A stretch of 54,514 nt of DNA from Elusimicrobiota bacterium (GCA_043819795.1 JBDREN010000105.1:1-54514); one strand, 5' to 3'. Counted from the first letter of the stretch, positions 22,458 to 34,895 are shown. The notes: generated by a model from the letters alone, not told the origin. A program made the numbers and translations.

Positions 22458-23240
22458 TCACCCCATCCGGGCCTTCAGGGAGGCCAGCATCCTGGCGACG
22501 GCCCCGTTCGAGGGGTCGAGCTCGTGGGCCTTCTCCAGGTTCTGGCGGGCGAGCTTGAGCTGGCCGAGGTGCTTCAGGAGCAGCCCCAGGCGGATGTAGA
22601 CCTTCGGCTCCTGCAGGCCGAAGTCGCGGGCCGCGCGGTACATCTTGACGGCGTTCTCCGCCTGGCGGGCGCGCTCGAGGGTCTCGGCGGAGAGGAAGTA
22701 GATGTGCTTGAGGTGGTCCTTGACGGCGAGCTCCTTGGCCTTCTGGAGCGTGCGCAGGGCCTCGCGCAGATGGTCTTCGCCCCGGGCCGAACGGGAGCGC
22801 GCGGCCCCGTTGTAGATGTGAAGGAGGCTGAGGGCCTCCTTCATCTTCGGGTTGAGCTTAACGGCCCGCTCCGCGTGCTGCTTGACGCACATGTTCGTCC
22901 AGCCGCGCCAGAGGGCGTAGTTCATCGCCTGCAGGTACTGCACCTCCCCCGAGATCGGGGCGTGCTCCGCCGCCTTGCGCAGGTGCTCGGCGGCCTCCTT
23001 GTGGAGCTTGCGCTTCACGTAATAGGCGGCCATGCCGAAATGGGCGTCGGGGTCATCGGGGTCCTCCCGGAGCTTCTTCTTGAACTCCAAGAATGCGCGG
23101 TCGAGCTGCGGCTTGCCGGCGCGCAGCAGGCCGAGCCCGCCCAGCCCGTGGACGATGGCGGCCCCGCAGAACTCGCAATGATCGACGTCCGACGAGTTCG
23201 GAGCCCCGCAGGCCGTGCAGCGGTCGGGATGCGCGCTCAT
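22458..23240 (-). CDS. N-terminal zinc-ribbon + TPR-repeat protein; start ATG overlaps the stop of the upstream Tim44-like gene (ATGA)
   Basis: MSAHPDRCTACGAPNSSDVDHCEFCGAAIV... then TPR-like helical repeats (…AAYYVKRKLHKEAAEHLRKAAE…YIRLGLLLKHLGQLKLARQNLEKAHELDP). It is the 3' part of track ORF 22458..25259, whose upstream part is out-of-frame junk. Confidence 0.65.
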   Translation of the reverse strand: MSAHPDRCTACGAPNSSDVDHCEFCGAAIVHGLGGLGLLRAGKPQLDRAFLEFKKKLREDPDDPDAHFGMAAYYVKRKLHKEAAEHLRKAAEHAPISGEVQYLQAMNYALWRGWTNMCVKQHAERAVKLNPKMKEALSLLHIYNGAARSRSARGEDHLREALRTLQKAKELAVKDHLKHIYFLSAETLERARQAENAVKMYRAARDFGLQEPKVYIRLGLLLKHLGQLKLARQNLEKAHELDPSNGAVARMLASLKARMG

Positions 23241-25222
23241 GGTCGCTCCTCCGGGGCCGAGAGCGCCTGCTTGGCCTTCCGGTACATGGCCGTGCGCTCC
23301 TCGTCGACCAAGGCCTTCACCTGGGCCGGCTGGAGCCGCATCCGCTGCCCGAAGGCCAGCAGCGCCTTCATCTCGGCGCTCGATATGCTCCCGTCGGCGA
23401 GGCTCATCTGGATGAGTCCGCCGAGATAGGCCCGGGCCTGGCTCGCGTCTTTCGGGCGGGGGACCTCGAGCCGGCCGGCCTGGGCCGCCCGCACCAGGGA
23501 CTGGATCCTGTCGGGCGGGATCCGATGCTTCCGGGCGTAGGACTGGGCGAAGGAAAGCTCGCGCTTGTCTATCTGCCCGTCCATGACCATCGCGCCGACG
23601 AGGATCGCCAAGGCGTCCGTCGGTCCCAGGGCCGAGGCCCAGTCCCCGTCGCCGTCCCCGCCTCCGGCGGGACTGGGCGCCCCGGCGGCTCCGGCCGCCC
23701 CGGCGGCGACCGGACGGGGCACGGCGCGCGGCCGCCACATCATGCGCGGCACCACCGAGACGACGATCCACTGGCGGCTGCCGTCGTTGAACGGCGTGCT
23801 GCAGTACTCGCAGGCGGCCAGACGGCGGTCCGAAGGCGGAGCCCCGCAGTTGCCGCAGCGCAGCGAGCGCAGCCCGGCGCCCGGATTCGTCACGGCGCCG
23901 CTCTTGCGGCCCAGGACGAATACGTGGGCCCGCAGGACCTGGCCCTTGGAGACCGGCTTGCCGTCCGAGACCAGGAAGCGCTCGGCCGACCAGCGGACCT
24001 GCACGTGCGCCCGGTCGACGTCGCTCTTCGGCTCGCAGGCGAGCGTCTCCACTCCGCCCACGGCCGCGTTCTTGTAGAGGACCTGCTCCCCCTGCCGCTG
24101 CCGCACGAAGGAGTCGCGGAATTCGTCGGCGGCCACGCTGCGAAGAGACTCGCCGTGGGGCTCCCAGTGGGCGAGCTGCCAGCGCCAGAACGCCACCGAG
24201 GCGCGGTCCTCCAGGAACTGGACGTTCAGCTCGGGGTCCCGCCGCGCCATCTCGGCGAGGCCCGGCACCGCGCGTCCGGGGTCCCTGAGCTTCCACTCGC
24301 AGGATTGGGTGATCTCGGAGAGCACCCAGTCGTACTCCCCGGAGTTCACCAGGGACTCGCAGCTGCCGCACTTGGCCGCGTCCGCGATCCGCAGAGGCGC
24401 GCCGCAGTTCGGGCAGTGCCCCTCGATGAGGCCGGGCTTCTGGAGGGTCTTCGCGCCGGGCCGCCTCAGCAACGACCAGACTTCGACGAACTCCTCGGCC
24501 CGCTTGCCGCTGTTGCGCAGCACGCTCCCGTCCTTGAGCGAGACGTCGGTGTCCACGGCGGAGGCGCGGACGCCGACGTGGATCGTGTCGAAGTGCTTGT
24601 CCGATTCGACCTGGACGACCCGCGCCTCGATGATCCGCACCTGCTCCATGCTGTTGCGCAGGCCCAGGGCCTTCTGCATGTCGATCTGGATGGAGAAGCG
24701 TTCTATCACCCCGTCGGAGACGAAGGCCCGGGCCGGGGACATGTCCTGGCCGGACCAGGCCTGCTGGATCTTCAGGAAGGCCGCGCCGACCCGGGACAGG
24801 AACCCCGCCTCCTCGAACCCCGGATCCCGCTTCTTGAGGCCGGCGAGGTTGGCCCGCTTCCGGAGGTCGCGCTGGGCCGCGGCCCCGCGGACGATGGTAT
24901 GCCCGACGTAGGCGGACTTCCCCTTCGTGCCCGTGAAGTACATGAAGCCGAGGAAGACGGCCACCGCCGGGATGCCGAAGGCCGGGTAGCGGACGGCCAA
25001 GTAGACGAGGTCGATGATGAAGCCCCCGCCGCCCCCGCCCCCGTAGCCGCTCCCGCCGCTGTAGCCGCCCCCGCCGCTGTAGCCGCCCCCGGAGCCGCCG
25101 CCGGAGTAGCTGTGGCCGCCGCCCGCGCGGCCGTAGGCCAGGGGCGCGGCCAAGGCCAGGACCGCGGCCAATAGCCCGGCGCGGCAAACCCAGGGTGCGC
25201 GGAGGGCTCTCAGATATCTCAC
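23237..25222 (-). CDS. Membrane protein with Gly/Tyr-rich N-terminus, TM segment, two Tim44-like (NTF2-fold) domains each followed by a zinc ribbon, and C-terminal TerB-like domain
   Basis: Gly/Tyr-rich N-terminus followed by TM FIIDLVYLAVRYPAFGIPAVAVFLGFMYF. Zinc ribbons CPNCGAPLRIADAAKCGSCESLV and CGNCGAPPSDRRLAACEYCSTPF. C-terminal DGQIDKRELSFAQSYARKHRI...SLADGSISSAEMKALLAFG is TerB-like. Domain names assigned by eye. Confidence 0.5.
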   Translation of the reverse strand: MRYLRALRAPWVCRAGLLAAVLALAAPLAYGRAGGGHSYSGGGSGGGYSGGGGYSGGSGYGGGGGGGFIIDLVYLAVRYPAFGIPAVAVFLGFMYFTGTKGKSAYVGHTIVRGAAAQRDLRKRANLAGLKKRDPGFEEAGFLSRVGAAFLKIQQAWSGQDMSPARAFVSDGVIERFSIQIDMQKALGLRNSMEQVRIIEARVVQVESDKHFDTIHVGVRASAVDTDVSLKDGSVLRNSGKRAEEFVEVWSLLRRPGAKTLQKPGLIEGHCPNCGAPLRIADAAKCGSCESLVNSGEYDWVLSEITQSCEWKLRDPGRAVPGLAEMARRDPELNVQFLEDRASVAFWRWQLAHWEPHGESLRSVAADEFRDSFVRQRQGEQVLYKNAAVGGVETLACEPKSDVDRAHVQVRWSAERFLVSDGKPVSKGQVLRAHVFVLGRKSGAVTNPGAGLRSLRCGNCGAPPSDRRLAACEYCSTPFNDGSRQWIVVSVVPRMMWRPRAVPRPVAAGAAGAAGAPSPAGGGDGDGDWASALGPTDALAILVGAMVMDGQIDKRELSFAQSYARKHRIPPDRIQSLVRAAQAGRLEVPRPKDASQARAYLGGLIQMSLADGSISSAEMKALLAFGQRMRLQPAQVKALVDEERTAMYRKAKQALSAPEERP

Positions 25223-25293: not shown

Positions 25294-27378
25294 ATGGCGT
25301 GGATGCGCCGGCCGCTGCGCCTTTTCCTGAGCCTCATTTTGTCGGTCCCGCCCGGCGCGTTCGCGGACGAGGGGATGTGGACCTTCGACAACCCTCCCCG
25401 CGACCTGATCGCGCGGCGCTACGGCTTCTCGCCGGACCAGGCATGGCTCGAGCACGCCCGCCTGGCCTCGCTGCGCTTCAACGACGGGGGCTCCGGATCG
25501 TTCGTCTCCCCCGAAGGGCTCGTCCTCACCAACCACCACGTGGCGATGGGCCAGCTCCAGAAGATGTCGACGCCCCGGAAGGACTATGTCCGCGACGGCT
25601 TTTTCGCGCGCGCCCGCGCGGAAGAGATCCCCTGCCCGGACCTCGAGATCAACCAGCTGGTCTCCTTCGATGACGTCACGCGGCGCGTGCACTCGGCCAT
25701 CGAGCCCGGCGTCGACGAGAAGCGGGCCAACGAGCAGCGCAAGGCGGAGACCGCCCGCATCGAGAAGGAATGCGCGGACGCCACGGGGCTGCGCTGCGAC
25801 GTCGTGGAGTTCTATCAAGGCGGGGAATACTGGCTCTACCGGTACAAGAAGCGCACGGACGTCCGCCTCGTCATGGCGCCCGAGATCGACGCGGCCTTCT
25901 TCGGCGGCGACTACGACAACTTCACCTATCCGCGCTTCGCCCTGGACTTCGCGTTCTTCCGGGTCTACGAGGACGGCGAGCCTGTCCGGCCCGAGCGCCG
26001 CTTCGCGTGGCGCCCGGGCGGGGCCAAGGAGGGGGAGCTGACCTTCGTCTTCGGCCATCCCGGCTCCACCAAGCGCCTGCGCACCGTCGCCCAGCTCGCC
26101 TTCGAGCGGGACCACGGCGCGCCCGCCATGCTGAGCTCGTTCCTGCGCGAGCGGGCGGCCCTGCGGGAGTACGCCGGGAAGGGGGGCGAGCAGGCCCGAC
26201 GGGCCAAGAGCAGCCTGTTCGGCGTCGAGAACGCCATCAAGGCGCTCGCCGGGATGCGGGAGGGCCTTTCCGATCCGGAGACTTTCGAGAAGAAGAAAGA
26301 GGAGGAGCGCCTCCTGCGCGAGCGCGCGGCCGCGGACCCCCTGCCGGCCGGGAAGGCGGCCGGAGCCTGGGACCGCATCGCCGGCGCGCAGGCCGAGGTC
26401 GCTTCCGCGTTCCCGCGCCTCCGGCACTACATGGGTTCGTCGCGGCGGGGGCACGCATTGACGGGCATCGCGGAGACCATCGTGCGCTACGTGGTCGAGG
26501 TCGAGAAGCCGAACGAGGACCGCTACGAGGAGTTCCGGGATTCCGCGCTCGAGTCCCTGCGCTTCCGGCTCTTCTCGCCGGCGCCGGTCTACAAGGACCT
26601 GGACGAAGCTCTTTTGGCCAGCCGCCTGCGGGAGTACCTCGACGACCTGGGCCGCGACGACCCCTTCGTGGCCGACCTGCTGGGGTCCACGTCGCCGGCC
26701 AAGGCGGCCGAGGCCGCGCTCGCGGCGACCCGTCTCGAGGACGTGGAGTTTCGCAGGAGCCTGGTGGAGGGAGGCCCGGCCGCCGTCGAGCGGACGGACG
26801 ATTCCCTCATCGCGTTCGCCCGGCGCGTCGATCCCCACTACAGGAGGCTGCGGGACTGGTACGAGGACGAGATCCAGAGCGTCGTGACGCGCGCCGGGCG
26901 GCGGATCGCCAAGGCCCGCTTCGCCCTCTACGGGAAGAACACGTACCCCGACGCGACCTTCACCCTTCGCCTGAGCTACGGCAAGCCGGCCTCCTACGAA
27001 CTGGGGACGACCCGCGTGCCGTACAAGACCGTCTTCGGCGGGCTATACGCCCGGGCCGACAGCTTCGACAACGAGCCGCCGTTCCGCCTGAGCCCGCGCG
27101 TAGCCGCGGCGCGCGGCGAGGTGGACCTATCCGTCCCCCTCGACTTCGTCACCGACCATGACATCATCGGCGGCAACTCGGGGAGCCCGGTCGTCAACAA
27201 GGACCTCGAGGTAGTGGGGCTGATCTTCGACTCGAACATCCACGGCCTCGTGACGAAATACGCCTATACCGAAGCCCGGGCCCGGGCGGTCGCGGTCCAT
27301 TCGAGCGCGATCCTCGAGGCCCTGCGCGGCGTATACGGGATGGAGTATCTCGCGCGGGAGCTGACGGGAGAAGAGTAA
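25294..27378 (+). CDS. S46-family dipeptidyl-peptidase (DPP7/DPP11/DAP BII-like serine peptidase), secreted
   Basis: Hallmark N-terminal DEGMWTFDNPP, catalytic region HHVAMGQL and IIGGNSGSPVVN, signal peptide, 694 aa. Confidence 0.85.
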   Translation: MAWMRRPLRLFLSLILSVPPGAFADEGMWTFDNPPRDLIARRYGFSPDQAWLEHARLASLRFNDGGSGSFVSPEGLVLTNHHVAMGQLQKMSTPRKDYVRDGFFARARAEEIPCPDLEINQLVSFDDVTRRVHSAIEPGVDEKRANEQRKAETARIEKECADATGLRCDVVEFYQGGEYWLYRYKKRTDVRLVMAPEIDAAFFGGDYDNFTYPRFALDFAFFRVYEDGEPVRPERRFAWRPGGAKEGELTFVFGHPGSTKRLRTVAQLAFERDHGAPAMLSSFLRERAALREYAGKGGEQARRAKSSLFGVENAIKALAGMREGLSDPETFEKKKEEERLLRERAAADPLPAGKAAGAWDRIAGAQAEVASAFPRLRHYMGSSRRGHALTGIAETIVRYVVEVEKPNEDRYEEFRDSALESLRFRLFSPAPVYKDLDEALLASRLREYLDDLGRDDPFVADLLGSTSPAKAAEAALAATRLEDVEFRRSLVEGGPAAVERTDDSLIAFARRVDPHYRRLRDWYEDEIQSVVTRAGRRIAKARFALYGKNTYPDATFTLRLSYGKPASYELGTTRVPYKTVFGGLYARADSFDNEPPFRLSPRVAAARGEVDLSVPLDFVTDHDIIGGNSGSPVVNKDLEVVGLIFDSNIHGLVTKYAYTEARARAVAVHSSAILEALRGVYGMEYLARELTGEE

Positions 27379-27509
27379 GGCGGGCACTGGAAGGACAACG
27401 GCATTCTTGCGACGGAGTTCCCGATAACGAAGGGGACTGAGCGCCGCAAGGCGAGCTTGCGGCGCTTACTTGGGCTGCTCCTGGCTCTCCATCACCTGCT
27501 GCAGGAGCT
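27378..27509. repeat. Direct repeat copy 1 (132 bp, perfect) = att-like site; contains a 10-bp-stem hairpin gcgccgcaag-gcgag-cttgcggcgc
   Basis: Identical to 29061-29192 base for base. Confidence 0.95.
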
Positions 27510-27927
27510 TCTGGGCGGATGCGACGTTCGACGATGAGGGAAAGCGCGCTGGGATGAAGCAGCGGGCGATACGGAGCGCGGCAGGTGAGAAGGACGTGAG
27601 GGCTCGATGAACGCGAAAGAAGGTCCGCAAAGCCGATTGCATCGAGCGGCGCGCCGCTCGGCCCATCCGCTGGGCATACGCCAGGAAGAAGGCTTCTACT
27701 TGCTCGGCATCCAGCCGTTTTAAACCGGGGACCGAAGGGAGACGGCGCGCAGTCAGACGGGATGCATCGGCATCCAGAAATGGGAAGTTATTCTTGCGCG
27801 AACCCTCAGGAACGTCAGGTCCAAGCCCCGGAGAGGCGAAGATGGGACACGGTCTTCCCCGGCAAACCCCCGGGCCCTTGACAGCGCAAGGGTCGCCGCC
27901 TAGACTGATTATGCCTCGGCCGGCCAC
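27510..27927 (-). pseudogene. Truncated tyrosine-recombinase/integrase N-terminal (SAM-like) fragment fused in-frame to the duplicated Yip1 3' end (chimeric ORF 27466..27927)
   Basis: LKRLDAEQVEAFFLAYAQRMGRAARRSMQSALRTFFRVH resembles the integrase N-terminal core-binding motif (…Y..L..FF.fL), followed by non-integrase sequence and then …LLQQVMESQEQPK from the repeat. No catalytic domain is present. Confidence 0.35.
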
Positions 27928-28037
27928 CCGATGAAAGAACGGCCTGCCGGGAAAGGAACGCCGGAAAACATGCGGCTTTCACATAGGCTGGCGCGGGGGC
28001 GGGGAGTGCGGCGCTGGCATCCGAAAGGGGAGGCGCG

Positions 28038-28475
28038 TTGCTGCCTCGGGTTCAGCAGGAGGGGCTGAGGACGTCGAGTCCGCCGCCTCCTGAGTCCCGT
28101 CGTGTGTCAGATGCAGGCTCTCGTCCTGATGATGATGAACCGGGCATGGTCAGTCGAGCGGTTTCCTTGGTCGGATCAAAAACGCGGCGAGGAAGCAGTT
28201 CCGCCAAAGACGATGGGTCTGGCTCAGGCTCATCGGACTCGAAGGGATTGGGCGCAGCCAAACGGGCGGCGCTGCATGGGGTAATATTCGGGGGCATTGT
28301 CGGTCTAGTAGCTGGGGGGGTCAGTCTTGGCCCCCCGGGCGCTGTCGGTGGAGGTCTCCTGGGCGTCGTCGTCGGGGCGGCGGTGGGGTGGTATTATGGC
28401 CACCATCATGACGCGATTTGGAGTGGAATAGGCAGGGATCTGAACGAGTTCGAACGGGACCAATTCGGGAACTAG
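28038..28475 (+). CDS. Small protein with hydrophilic Ser/Gly/Asp-rich N-terminal region and C-terminal glycine-zipper transmembrane segment
   Basis: TTG start with strong SD AAAGGGGAGG 5 nt upstream. C-terminus GVIFGGIVGLVAGGVSLGPPGAVGGGLLGVVVGAAVGWYYGHHHD has repeated GxxxG. Lower GC than the host. Confidence 0.55.
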   Translation: MLPRVQQEGLRTSSPPPPESRRVSDAGSRPDDDEPGMVSRAVSLVGSKTRRGSSSAKDDGSGSGSSDSKGLGAAKRAALHGVIFGGIVGLVAGGVSLGPPGAVGGGLLGVVVGAAVGWYYGHHHDAIWSGIGRDLNEFERDQFGN

Positions 28476-28482
28476 AAGAAAC

Positions 28483-28980
28483 TTGGCCGCATGGGGAGAA
28501 AGCGTGAAGGAAAACGTGACTACTGAAGCGACGATTAGGCTTAAGCGATTGGCCCGTTCATTCGCGGCGTTTGGCTTCTTTCTTATGGTCCCATGGGCGT
28601 CATATCTTTCAACTCTCCTTCTGATCAGGAACCGGGTGATTATTGATACTGATTCGGCGGCGTTACTGATTAAGGTTATAACAGCAGTAGCGATGATGTC
28701 GTTTTTCATGCTTCCCCTGCTCGTTCTTGCTTCATCTGCACAATTCTATTGGGCCTTTCGAGATAACTTGGCTTGGTCCAAGGTGCTTCGATTCGGAATG
28801 CTTCGGGGGTTGCCTATAATGGCTGGCATACTCATGGTGTTTGTCTTGTCATTGAAGGCCAGCGGAGCGGGGTGGTTGGCGTATCTTTTCTCTTTTGGAA
28901 TCGGCGTGATTATTTACTCAGTTTGGCTTATACGCAAGGACCAGGCAGTATTGGCTACTGAGACCAAGCAGGGAATATAG
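28483..28980 (+). CDS. Small 4-TM integral membrane protein (hypothetical; possible GTG start at 28504 with GGGAGA SD)
   Basis: Hydrophobic segments AAFGFFLMVPWASYLSTLLLI, ITAVAMMSFFMLPLLVLASS, GLPIMAGILMVFVLSL, WLAYLFSFGIGVIIYSVWLI. ~45% GC against ~70% flanks. Confidence 0.55.
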   Translation: MAAWGESVKENVTTEATIRLKRLARSFAAFGFFLMVPWASYLSTLLLIRNRVIIDTDSAALLIKVITAVAMMSFFMLPLLVLASSAQFYWAFRDNLAWSKVLRFGMLRGLPIMAGILMVFVLSLKASGAGWLAYLFSFGIGVIIYSVWLIRKDQAVLATETKQGI

Positions 28981-28991
28981 AGGCGGGGTCA

Positions 28992-29050
28992 GGCTTGACT
29001 TTCGGGACAAACCCGGGCGGCCCCGGCGAATACTTCCCGAAAGTCAAGCC
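28992..29050. repeat. Perfect 16-bp inverted repeat ggcttgactttcggga / tcccgaaagtcaagcc with 27-nt GC-rich spacer, immediately 3' of the 4-TM gene and abutting the right direct repeat
   Basis: Read in sequence. Candidate terminator or recombinase-binding palindrome. Confidence 0.8.
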
Positions 29051-29060
29051 CGGCACCGTG

Positions 29061-29192
29061 AGGCGGGCACTGGAAGGACAACGGCATTCTTGCGACGGAG
29101 TTCCCGATAACGAAGGGGACTGAGCGCCGCAAGGCGAGCTTGCGGCGCTTACTTGGGCTGCTCCTGGCTCTCCATCACCTGCTGCAGGAGCT
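29061..29192. repeat. Direct repeat copy 2 (132 bp, perfect), contiguous with the intact Yip1 gene 3' end
   Basis: Identical to 27378-27509. Confidence 0.95.
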
Positions 29193-30360
29193 GCATGCTC
29201 TGGTCGAACGCTTTGTTCACGCTCTGCGAGGCCGTCGCGGTCCGTTCGATGAAGTCCCCGCGGCTCTCCCGGGGGATGCTTGGCAGGTTCTCGACGAGGG
29301 ACTGGCGGATCGGAGCGCCCATCCGCGGCCAGATCTCGAGAAGCCGGTCCGCCGTCTCGTCGTCGAGGAGCGCCAGCGTCTCCTCCGGCGGCTCCTCCAT
29401 GGCGCTGTAGCGGCCGAGCTTCTGGAGGACCGCCCCCGGGTCCTGCATCGCCTGGTCCATCATCCGCCGCATCTTGTCGGCGGCCGCGGGATCGCCCAGA
29501 CCCGGCATGCCGCCTCCCGCCGGACTAGCCGTGGGAGCGCCCATCATCCCCGGGAACTGCCCGGAGCTCGCCATCTGCTGCAATTTGCGGGCCTGCATGG
29601 TGAATGTGATCGAGCCGATGATGCCGAGGGCCGTGAGGATGCCGAATACGATCCAGGCCTTCTTCTTGGCGATCTTGTGCACTCCGGCCGCGGACTGGAC
29701 GCTGAGATAGAGGCCGTAGAGCTGCACGGGGATGTTCCCGAACGGGATGACGCCGATCACGGAGCTCACGGGGAACAGGGCCGAAAGCCCGCTGATGACC
29801 TGGTAGCTGCCCCTGAAGGGAGCCTTGCCGCCGAGGATCAGGCAGACGACGTGATAGACCGCGGCGCCGATGAAGCTGAAGATCACGGCCATGACGGGAA
29901 AGACGATGATCTGGGCCAGCGCCGCCGCCTTGCCGAACATCCCCGCGGGGACCAGGAAGCCGATGAGGCCGAGGATGAAGCCGCTGATCACGGCCCACAG
30001 CAGGAGGTTGACTACCGCGGGCCCCATCGGGCCCTTCGGGTCGATCCTCGAGAAGAACGCCTCCGGCTCCTGGAAAAGGGCCTTGGCGTTCGCGATGAGG
30101 TTCTGGGGAGAGAAGACGACGTACCCCTCCTGGGGCACGGTCTCGGGCGTCGCCGTCCCGCCGCCGGCGGGCATGCCGGACTGCGGCGCTTCCGGGGCCG
30201 CGGGCGCCGGCGGAGGGGGAGCCTGTCCCGTGGCGATGCCGGCCGCCTCCTCGACGTCCTGGGAAGAGAAGCCCTGCTTGACCAAGGCCTGCTTCAGCGA
30301 TTCGATGGGATACTTCCCCGCGTTCTGGCGGATGTAGTCGATTATTCTGGGATCGGGCAT
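29149..30360 (-). CDS. Yip1-domain family integral membrane protein with Pro-rich linker and C-terminal cytoplasmic domain
   Basis: Multi-TM core GPAVVNLLLWAVISGFILGLIGFLV...IVFPVMAVIFSFIGAAVYHVVCLILG...; 403 aa; its 3' end is duplicated at 27466-27509. Confidence 0.6.
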   Translation of the reverse strand: MPDPRIIDYIRQNAGKYPIESLKQALVKQGFSSQDVEEAAGIATGQAPPPPAPAAPEAPQSGMPAGGGTATPETVPQEGYVVFSPQNLIANAKALFQEPEAFFSRIDPKGPMGPAVVNLLLWAVISGFILGLIGFLVPAGMFGKAAALAQIIVFPVMAVIFSFIGAAVYHVVCLILGGKAPFRGSYQVISGLSALFPVSSVIGVIPFGNIPVQLYGLYLSVQSAAGVHKIAKKKAWIVFGILTALGIIGSITFTMQARKLQQMASSGQFPGMMGAPTASPAGGGMPGLGDPAAADKMRRMMDQAMQDPGAVLQKLGRYSAMEEPPEETLALLDDETADRLLEIWPRMGAPIRQSLVENLPSIPRESRGDFIERTATASQSVNKAFDQSMQLLQQVMESQEQPK

Positions 30361-33501: not shown

Positions 33502-34809
33502 TCAATCCTTCTTCAGCCAGTTTCTAATAGCCGGAAACGAAGTGATCCTATCTACCGAATCCTGCAGCGCTTGGTTCTGCTGCCGTAGCTGTCGGATCTC
33601 GTCCTGCATCGCGGCGACTTCTTCGGGCGTCATGCCCGGCTCTCCCTGCGGACCTTGAGGCCCGCCTGGCCCCGCTGGGCCAGTATCTCCAGTATCTCCT
33701 TTCAGACCGGCAGGACCTCGAGGGCCCGCCGGTCCTTCAGGACCGATCGGACCGGCGTCGCCCGTGTCTCCTTCGGGTCCGGCTGCGCCCGCGGGTCCCG
33801 CAGGGCCTTGGGTGCCCGGATTCGTAATGATCAGCGTATCTTTCGCTTTGGCCCCGAAATTGTCCATGACCGTGAGCTCGATCAGCTCTTCCGCATAACC
33901 GTGAGCGTTCATGGTGACAATGTCGCCTTCGGCGACAACGGGATTGTCCGCGTCGGAGAGGTTTCTCCACACCCAGTAGACGACCTCGCCATCCGGGTCA
34001 TAGGACAGACTCCCGTCCAGCGTTACCTCCTCGCCGGCGGAAGCTTTTACGTCCGGCCCCGCGTTTGCTATCGGCGGCTCGGTTTCCGCCACTTCATATC
34101 CTAGGCCCTGTAGACCATTTTGATAATACGCTTGGATCTCTTCCTGGGTCAAAGCCCGGTTGAAGATGGCCACTTCGTCGAGCAAGCCGTCGAAATAGCA
34201 TCCGGGAGATCCGCCTCTCCCGCCGATGAACAGCCTGCTTGTATGTGTTACTATCCTGGTCGAAAGCTCTGCTCCATAAAGAACCCCATCCAAATACAAT
34301 CTGATGTTGCTCCCGTCATATGTCCCGACGACGAAATGCCAGTTGCCGTCGTTGATATCCGCTCCTTCGGTGAATAGGATGTCGAAACCATTGGCATCGC
34401 CCACGAGCCAAGTCAATTCCGACGCGTCATTGTATTTAGTCCCAAGTCTATAACCATTTCGCCCATTATCATGAGCGGAAGAGACCATGTCATCATTGGC
34501 CCCGCCGTCGCTCTTGAACCAAACGGCGATGCTCGGATGCGCCACTCGGATAGGAGAGGCGGTCCCCAGGTCGACATAATCATTCGCGCCGTCGAAGCTC
34601 ATCGCTCCGCCGACTTGGCCATCGGCCCATATGGCGCCGTGGATCGTGCCATGGCTGTCGTAGCCGGAACTGTCAATCGCGACCGATCCAGAGCCCGCGT
34701 CAAGCCTCCAATACCCCATCATGCCTTCTTGTGCTTCGGCTGTCCCAGCCAGAGCTAGAAGCAGCATGACTCCAGCCGCCGACCCCAGTCTTTTCAGTGT
34801 TTTGGCCAT
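33502..34809 (-). CDS. Secreted LamG (concanavalin A-like) - PKD-like - collagen-like triple-helix (21 G-X-Y triplets) - C-terminal coiled-coil protein
   Basis: Start taken at the internal ATG 34809, with GGAG SD 8 nt upstream and signal peptide [26 protein letters not shown]. LamG: [22 protein letters not shown]...[17 protein letters not shown]-like: [29 protein letters not shown]. Collagen: [61 protein letters not shown]. Confidence 0.7.
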
Positions 34810-34866
34810 GGATGGGCTCCCTTCCAGCGATTCCGGTTTTCGCTTCCGAAAGTCTGCTGTCACCAG

Positions 34867-34895
34867 ATTATAGCCCCATGTCGCTGACAATTCAA
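34867..34895 (-). promoter_or_regulatory. Sigma-70-like promoter for the collagen-like gene: -35 TTGAAT, 17-nt spacer, -10 TATAAT (minus strand)
   Basis: Reverse complement of 34867-34895 reads TTGAATtgtcagcgacatggggcTATAAT, ~55 nt upstream of the ATG. Confidence 0.5.

Follow-up and report, generated by a model that had tools for sequence, protein, structure and literature searches.

The window analysed here is a complete contig of 54,514 bp from a metagenome-assembled genome (MAG) of an uncultured Elusimicrobiota bacterium, the genes of which carry the locus-tag prefix ABII00. Between two host genes it holds a small islet that consists of two perfect 132-bp direct repeats and a 1551-bp interior (~1.55 kb), the latter with a candidate glycine-zipper open reading frame (ORF) and a gene for a membrane protein with four predicted transmembrane segments (4-TM protein). 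On the left the islet is flanked by an S46 family peptidase gene (25294–27378, + strand; MFH1724596.1), which matches Pfam family PF10459 with E = 1e-197 and has a GC content at third codon positions (GC3) of 0.93. On the right lies the likely target of the insertion, a gene for a Yip1-family membrane protein (yip1; 29149–30360, − strand; MFH1724598.1; PF04893, E = 1.8e-9; GC3 0.92). Judging from Pfam, the neighbours of the islet are housekeeping genes.

The left, attL-like repeat (27378–27509) and the right, attR-like repeat (29061–29192) had been described in an earlier, sequence-only reading of the window as identical copies of the yip1 3′ end and its hairpin, and both parts of that description hold on re-reading, with identity at 132 of 132 positions. 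Starting the repeats at 27375 and 29058 lengthens them to 135 bp at the cost of one mismatch, with no further extension, and the 40–300 bp past each border align locally no better than shuffled sequence does, so that both borders are abrupt. Each copy comprises, in this order, an 88-bp spacer after the S46 stop codon, a hairpin (27440–27466 and 29123–29149; 5-nt loop on a perfect stem of 11 bp), and the 3′ end of yip1 on the minus strand, made up of its stop codon, the preceding 13 sense codons (LLQQVMESQEQPK) and 2 nt of one further codon. All 13 sense codons end in G or C, as is typical for the host. In the right copy these elements form the functional 3′ end of yip1 and its downstream hairpin; in the left copy the stop and the last 13 codons are displaced, and the first base of the repeat is also the final base of the S46 stop codon (TAA, 27376–27378). 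Neither a third copy of the repeat nor a second copy of the interior is present within the 54.5-kb window.

The interior is compositionally foreign, and the switch occurs exactly at the repeat borders. GC3 in the interior ranges from 0.54 to 0.73, as opposed to 0.92–0.93 in the host genes for the S46 peptidase, Yip1 and CysS; all ORFs within 27510–29060 have a GC3 of at most 0.68, and the 40 codons inside the left repeat have a GC3 of 0.73 vs. 0.93 for the corresponding yip1 codons at the right repeat. A sliding-window GC profile, which had been proposed as a check, places the lowest 500-bp window of the contig within the islet, 4.6 standard deviations below the mean. The expectation that both cargo genes would be much lower in GC than the host is correct for the 4-TM gene (0.48 vs. 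0.676 for the window), whereas the glycine-zipper ORF, with a total GC of 0.62, is only modestly below the window. Its GC3 is nevertheless 0.60 compared to 0.92 in the host, and the small overall drop is explained by a Gly/Ala-rich composition that masks the difference at third positions. With a perfect, host-like repeat on either side of DNA that changes composition precisely at the borders, the locus looks as one would expect for an att-like duplication bounding a foreign insertion, as the sequence-only reading had proposed.

The better supported of the two cargo genes is that of the 4-TM protein (28504–28980, + strand), which encodes 158 aa from a GTG start preceded by GGGGAGA; with the alternative in-frame start TTG at 28483 the protein would be 165 aa long. 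A phmmer search of 1.84 billion cluster representatives returned one genuine homologue, the 151-aa protein P0002 (E = 4.2e-8), which aligns collinearly over residues 4–148, together with two other matches that are repetitive junk. In a pairwise BLASTP comparison, the two proteins have 28% identity over 151 aa (E = 4e-15). P0002 is MFH1726574.1 (ABII00_18345), encoded on a 7,172-bp contig, and since its locus-tag prefix is that of the window genes, this contig is part of the MAG that the window comes from. From the full-length conservation with P0002 we conclude that the 4-TM gene is real. An AlphaFold2 model based on the two-sequence alignment, of low confidence (pLDDT 60, pTM 0.40), contains four long helices.

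The preceding ORF (28038–28475, + strand) would encode a 145-aa protein from a TTG start at 28038, with the Shine-Dalgarno sequence GGGGAGG 5 nt upstream. The protein would have a hydrophilic, Ser/Gly/Asp-rich N-terminal part of ~75 aa, followed by two zipper helices and a short charged tail, with ten overlapping GxxxG motifs in residues 81–121 that form two runs split by Pro-Pro. As sequence features, both the zipper pattern and the strong ribosome-binding site are as first described, and the ORF is probably a gene. In Pfam, the closest families are Gly-zipper_Omp (PF13488; E = 0.008, 16.5 bits, below the gathering cut-off of 25) and Gly-zipper_YMGG (PF13441; E = 0.013, 15.7 bits, below the cut-off of 28.9), and the full ORF scores 14 bits against the latter cut-off of 28.9. 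The two-helix glycine-zipper architecture is common to these families and the islet protein. Many members of PF13488 and PF13441 are outer-membrane lipoproteins with a signal peptide or lipobox, whereas the islet ORF has neither and scores under the gathering cut-offs. The proposed search for homologues of both cargo proteins thus succeeded for one of the two: P0002 was found for the 4-TM protein and nothing for the glycine-zipper ORF. Likewise, searches of metagenome contigs, IMG/VR, GenBank phages and PLSDB plasmids returned no homologue of the cargo, and no part of the islet has a match in PADLOC, PHROGs, NCBIfam or Rfam.

The stop codon of the glycine-zipper ORF and the start of the 4-TM gene are separated by 7–28 nt, and the 4-TM gene is followed by a right-end hairpin (28984–29058) with 24-nt imperfect arms, a 16-bp perfect core (28992–29007 and 29035–29050) and a 27-nt loop. 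The inverted repeat noted earlier at the end of the cargo is therefore present, with the refinement that its perfect core stops 10 nt, and its imperfect 24-nt arm 2 nt, short of the right repeat. The predicted minimum free energies are −48.1 and −48.9 kcal/mol (z = −4.1 and −4.8), and none of 200 shuffled sequences folds as well. The hairpin has no T-run on its 3′ side and a terminator scan was negative; it is probably an operon terminator, or an insulator adjoining the att site. The two genes would be co-transcribed and the glycine-zipper ORF translated, and the most plausible view of their products is that they cooperate in the cytoplasmic membrane. The public record gives a different picture of this region, with both plus-strand cargo genes absent and an antisense ORF (28305–28709, − strand; MFH1724597.1, ABII00_08245, an exact match) as the only coding sequence between the S46 gene and yip1. 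This antisense ORF has no Pfam match and is probably a gene-calling error, because it overlaps both cargo genes and the opposite strand encodes the conserved 4-TM protein.

To the left of the cargo genes lie 528 bp (27510–28037; GC3 0.65) with no recognisable gene and no Pfam or homologue match. A sigma-70-like promoter match (TTGACA-17-TAGACT, 10 of 12 positions; 27878–27906, + strand) faces both cargo genes and overlaps the 5′ end of an ORF on the opposite strand (27466–27927, − strand). This ORF, which the sequence-only reading had described as a chimera fused to the repeat, does exist, and it ends as stated: after ~139 residues it reaches the repeat, and the 13 duplicated yip1 residues form its C-terminus. 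The same segment contains an 18-bp perfect palindrome (CGAGCGGCGCGCCGCTCG, 27643–27660), which might be a protein-binding site or a chance occurrence in GC-rich DNA; there are only three palindromic 16-mers in the entire window.

How did the islet arise? The perfect duplication of a gene 3′ end and its hairpin, the foreign DNA between the copies and the intact flanking genes together represent the anatomy of Campbell-type integration. With a probability of roughly two in three (about 0.65), we consider an integrative mobile element to have entered at the 3′ end of yip1 and to have decayed to an integrase-less, att-flanked remnant that resembles a cis-mobilisable element (CIME). As for the mechanism of integration and the loss of the integrase, we infer that a circular element bore a stretch of 132 bp, or originally longer, identical to the yip1 3′ end and the downstream hairpin, and that this element recombined at the yip1 site, most likely by the action of a site-specific recombinase and less likely via RecA acting on 132 bp of homology. 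Integration would have left the stretch in two copies, one to the left and one to the right, with the 3′ ends of both yip1 and the S46 gene intact, and the recombination genes would have been lost afterwards. If those genes went by an internal deletion, the left repeat may have lost part of its inner end too, and the original block of identity was possibly longer. What would remain is ~0.5 kb that can no longer be recognised, together with a self-contained plus-strand unit made up of the promoter-like site, the glycine-zipper gene, the 4-TM gene and the hairpin. In keeping with such decay, searches of every interior ORF and all six frames with Pfam, PHROGs and NCBIfam returned no recombinase, relaxase or other mobile-element domain.

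Several observations weigh against this explanation. The source is a metagenome-assembled contig, and the integrated state rests on the assembly. A tblastn search with IntI1 across the whole window, which is a weak test, gave nothing significant, so that no cognate integrase is detectable there. The sole homologue of the 4-TM protein sits in the same MAG, and for this reason the family may be native to the lineage and not truly foreign. For the glycine-zipper ORF, the searched collections contain no homologue, and its Pfam scores stay below threshold; defence, phage and toxin families gave no match to either cargo protein, and both lack a domain for secretion or delivery. Finally, the genome and metagenome collections contain a single relative of yip1, at 50% identity in Elusimicrobia GWA2_69_24, and the gene downstream of it is a different one.

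Scanning both collections with Yip1 returned the GWA2_69_24 locus (L001, 10001–12683) twice, as one identical sequence. The upstream cysS–yip1 synteny is kept there. Downstream, yip1 is followed by a gene for a 533-aa multi-pass membrane protein instead of the S46 peptidase, and the S46–yip1 junction is therefore not conserved at the phylogenetic distance of GWA2_69_24. Exact-protein look-ups with the Yip1 and S46 proteins found no contigs, and in the protein collection the window proteins fall into single-member clusters.

Among the other explanations for the locus, an assembly or population artefact fares best, and we regard it as unlikely. The 1551 bp and one repeat could exist as a free 1683-bp circle, or in a sub-population only, with the assembler threading them into the chromosome via the shared 132 bp. 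The window is a complete MAG contig of 54,514 bp, the repeats are perfectly identical, and a circle sharing 132 bp with the chromosome would give the same path in the assembly graph as an integrated copy, all of which is compatible with this explanation. Against it, 132 bp corresponds, to our knowledge, to none of the usual values of k or k−1 (with k the k-mer length) of metagenome assemblers; moreover, a free molecule would still represent this element after excision and would change the biological conclusion little.

Quite unlikely, in our view, is an origin that involves no mobile element at all, either by illegitimate or homology-facilitated capture with the 132-bp duplication as a by-product of repair, or as an old arrangement with copies kept identical by gene conversion. 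Such an origin would account for an islet that has no recombinase and no recognisable mobile-element gene, and for a 4-TM family with its only other member in the same MAG. It fits poorly with a clean duplication of exactly a gene 3′ end and terminator hairpin with foreign DNA in between, which is the Campbell-type signature, and homology-facilitated illegitimate recombination, as far as we know, leaves its anchor unduplicated.

In another reading, the 1683-bp unit of cargo and one repeat would be a still-mobile, minimal hitch-hiker without its own recombinase. An integrase from another locus of the Elusimicrobiota genome, or RecA using the 132-bp repeats, would move it out of and back into the yip1 terminator, and it would persist in the population because the gene pair is a new, lineage-restricted membrane toxin–immunity module for addiction or competition. 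We give this little credence; if true, the divergent copy of the 4-TM gene elsewhere in the MAG would be an orphan or related immunity gene.

Least probable of the readings considered in detail, and in our estimation very improbable, is the one that had been offered for the chimeric ORF (27466–27927, − strand), namely that it is the truncated SAM-like N-terminus of a tyrosine integrase fused to the repeat, and that the islet is an element that had its own integrase and was crippled recently. The ORF adjoins the att-like repeat, and its sequence 'LDAEQVEAFFLAYAQR...SMQSALRTFFRV' resembles, by eye, the helix pattern of a SAM-like domain. The comparison with integrase N-terminal models that had been suggested as a check produced no match: Pfam gave no family at E ≤ 1 for the ORF, with SAM-like core-binding models (PF02899, PF13495 and related) included, and all stop-to-stop segments in the six frames of 27500–28110 had no match at E ≤ 10, Phage_integrase included. 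The ORF has no match in PHROGs or NCBIfam, no PDB chain scores better than E = 1.3, no homologue exists at E ≤ 1 among 5.8 billion proteins, and in a tblastn search of 50,697 phage genome records no integrase lies under any match. A BLASTP comparison with IntI1 is non-significant (E = 0.17) and out of register. In contrast, N-terminal fragments of known recombinases, used as positive controls, were readily recognised by the Pfam SAM-like models (IntI1, 122 aa, E = 1.8e-28, and 65 aa, E = 6.7e-12; XerD, 125 aa, E = 1.2e-26), and a genuine integrase N-terminal fragment of this length would therefore normally be detected. All database searches with the ORF were thus empty where control fragments scored between 6.7e-12 and 1.8e-28, and the claim of an integrase remnant finds no recombinase signal in any of the six frames. 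A catalytic C-terminal domain with its R-H-R-Y residues is absent too, the ORF running into the repeat after ~139 residues. In addition, the ORF has no coding-type GC3 signal, its 5′ end contains the promoter-like site for the opposite strand, and it is located at the far end of the islet from yip1, whereas integrase genes are usually found at the island end that adjoins the target gene.

An apparent similarity of the chimeric ORF to the yip1 C-terminal region (tblastn, E = 5e-4), which would make it a diverged copy of that region, drops to E = 0.34 once the 13 repeat residues are removed, and a second yip1 3′ end at this position fails likewise, the DNA past the repeat being no more similar to yip1 than shuffled sequence. 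A transposon with a target-site duplication is rejected, the interior having no terminal inverted repeats and 132 bp being too long (the bacterial target-site duplications we know of are far shorter), as is an integron cassette with the right-end hairpin as attC, since the ends have no GTTRRRY or RYYYAAC core sites and integron recombination makes no 132-bp duplication.

Returning to the decayed integrative element, its closest known counterparts are CIMEs, decayed derivatives of ICEs and IMEs whose integration and transfer genes have been lost while attL and attR persist (PMC5704250). Like CIMEs, such as the Streptococcus thermophilus examples located at the fda 3′ end, the islet has direct repeats, one of which restores the 3′ end of a protein-coding target, and it combines a foreign composition and a small cargo with the lack of integrase and transfer genes. 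It differs in the length of its repeats, 132 bp compared with ~27 bp for the fda att repeat, and in its host, an uncultured Elusimicrobiota bacterium. No cognate integrase-bearing element is known for the islet, and cis mobilisation would apply to it only by analogy. A second comparison is with remnants of prophages or genomic islands that carry moron cargo. These also have a promoter–genes–hairpin unit of deviant GC beside an att site and encode small membrane proteins; the islet is different in that it has no phage gene or PHROG match and no counterpart in IMG/VR or GenBank phages.

What the cargo pair does can be approached by comparison with glycine-zipper membrane toxins, several of which have membrane partners, such as EsxX with ExiCD (PMC12744356) and CdzC/D with CdzI (PMC5380434). 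The immunity partners of these toxins are small or polytopic membrane proteins, often without homologues (PMC5380434, PMC12744356), and CdzI itself has no obvious homologues and three predicted transmembrane segments (PMC5380434). The islet pair resembles CdzC/D–CdzI, EsxX–ExiCD and TelE (PMC10434224) in that its small zipper protein has a long run of GxxxG motifs and in gene order, with the zipper gene directly 5′ of a gene for a small polytopic partner without known homologues. It differs in several respects. An LXG domain, a type I secretion signal and secretion genes are all lacking, and a search for delivery and secretion determinants (LXG and type VII secretion, type I secretion signals, type VI secretion and CdiA) with Pfam, NCBIfam and PADLOC gave no domain in the N-terminal 75 aa of the zipper protein or in the neighbouring genes. 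The N-terminus of the zipper protein is furthermore long and hydrophilic, and the protein has the appearance of a hairpin residing in the inner membrane; the pair has no sequence homology to the proteins of the known systems. Given that a delivery domain and a secretion system are lacking, the pair does not belong to the Cdz, EsxX or TelE systems. The likeness to small membrane toxin–immunity modules that had been seen in the pair accordingly stands as regards the zipper and the adjacent polytopic partner, but not as regards delivery. Tentatively, and with more doubt than confidence, we suggest that the pair could consist of a membrane-perturbing glycine-zipper protein and a polytopic protector or immunity partner.

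Two other regions of the contig deserve mention. A second low-GC patch (33502–34890, − strand; 0.53–0.59 vs. 0.68) corresponds to a gene for a 462-aa protein with LamG-like (PF13385, E = 6.6e-30), PKD and collagen-repeat domains, which is possibly another horizontally acquired surface protein. In the other, a 661-aa protein (23237–25222, − strand) has Tim44-like, TerB and zinc-ribbon matches, and 18-bp tandem repeats at 25028–25099 encode its Gly-rich N-terminus.

The islet is an ordinary kind of element, and little depends on its discovery. For an uncultured Elusimicrobiota bacterium, it indicates that elements can integrate at the 3′ end and terminator of a Yip1-family gene, and it corrects a public annotation in which an antisense ORF was called and both cargo genes were missed. 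The 4-TM family has two detectable members in ~15 billion proteins. If the pair is indeed a membrane toxin–immunity module, it would be a very small, secretion-independent addition to the glycine-zipper toxins.

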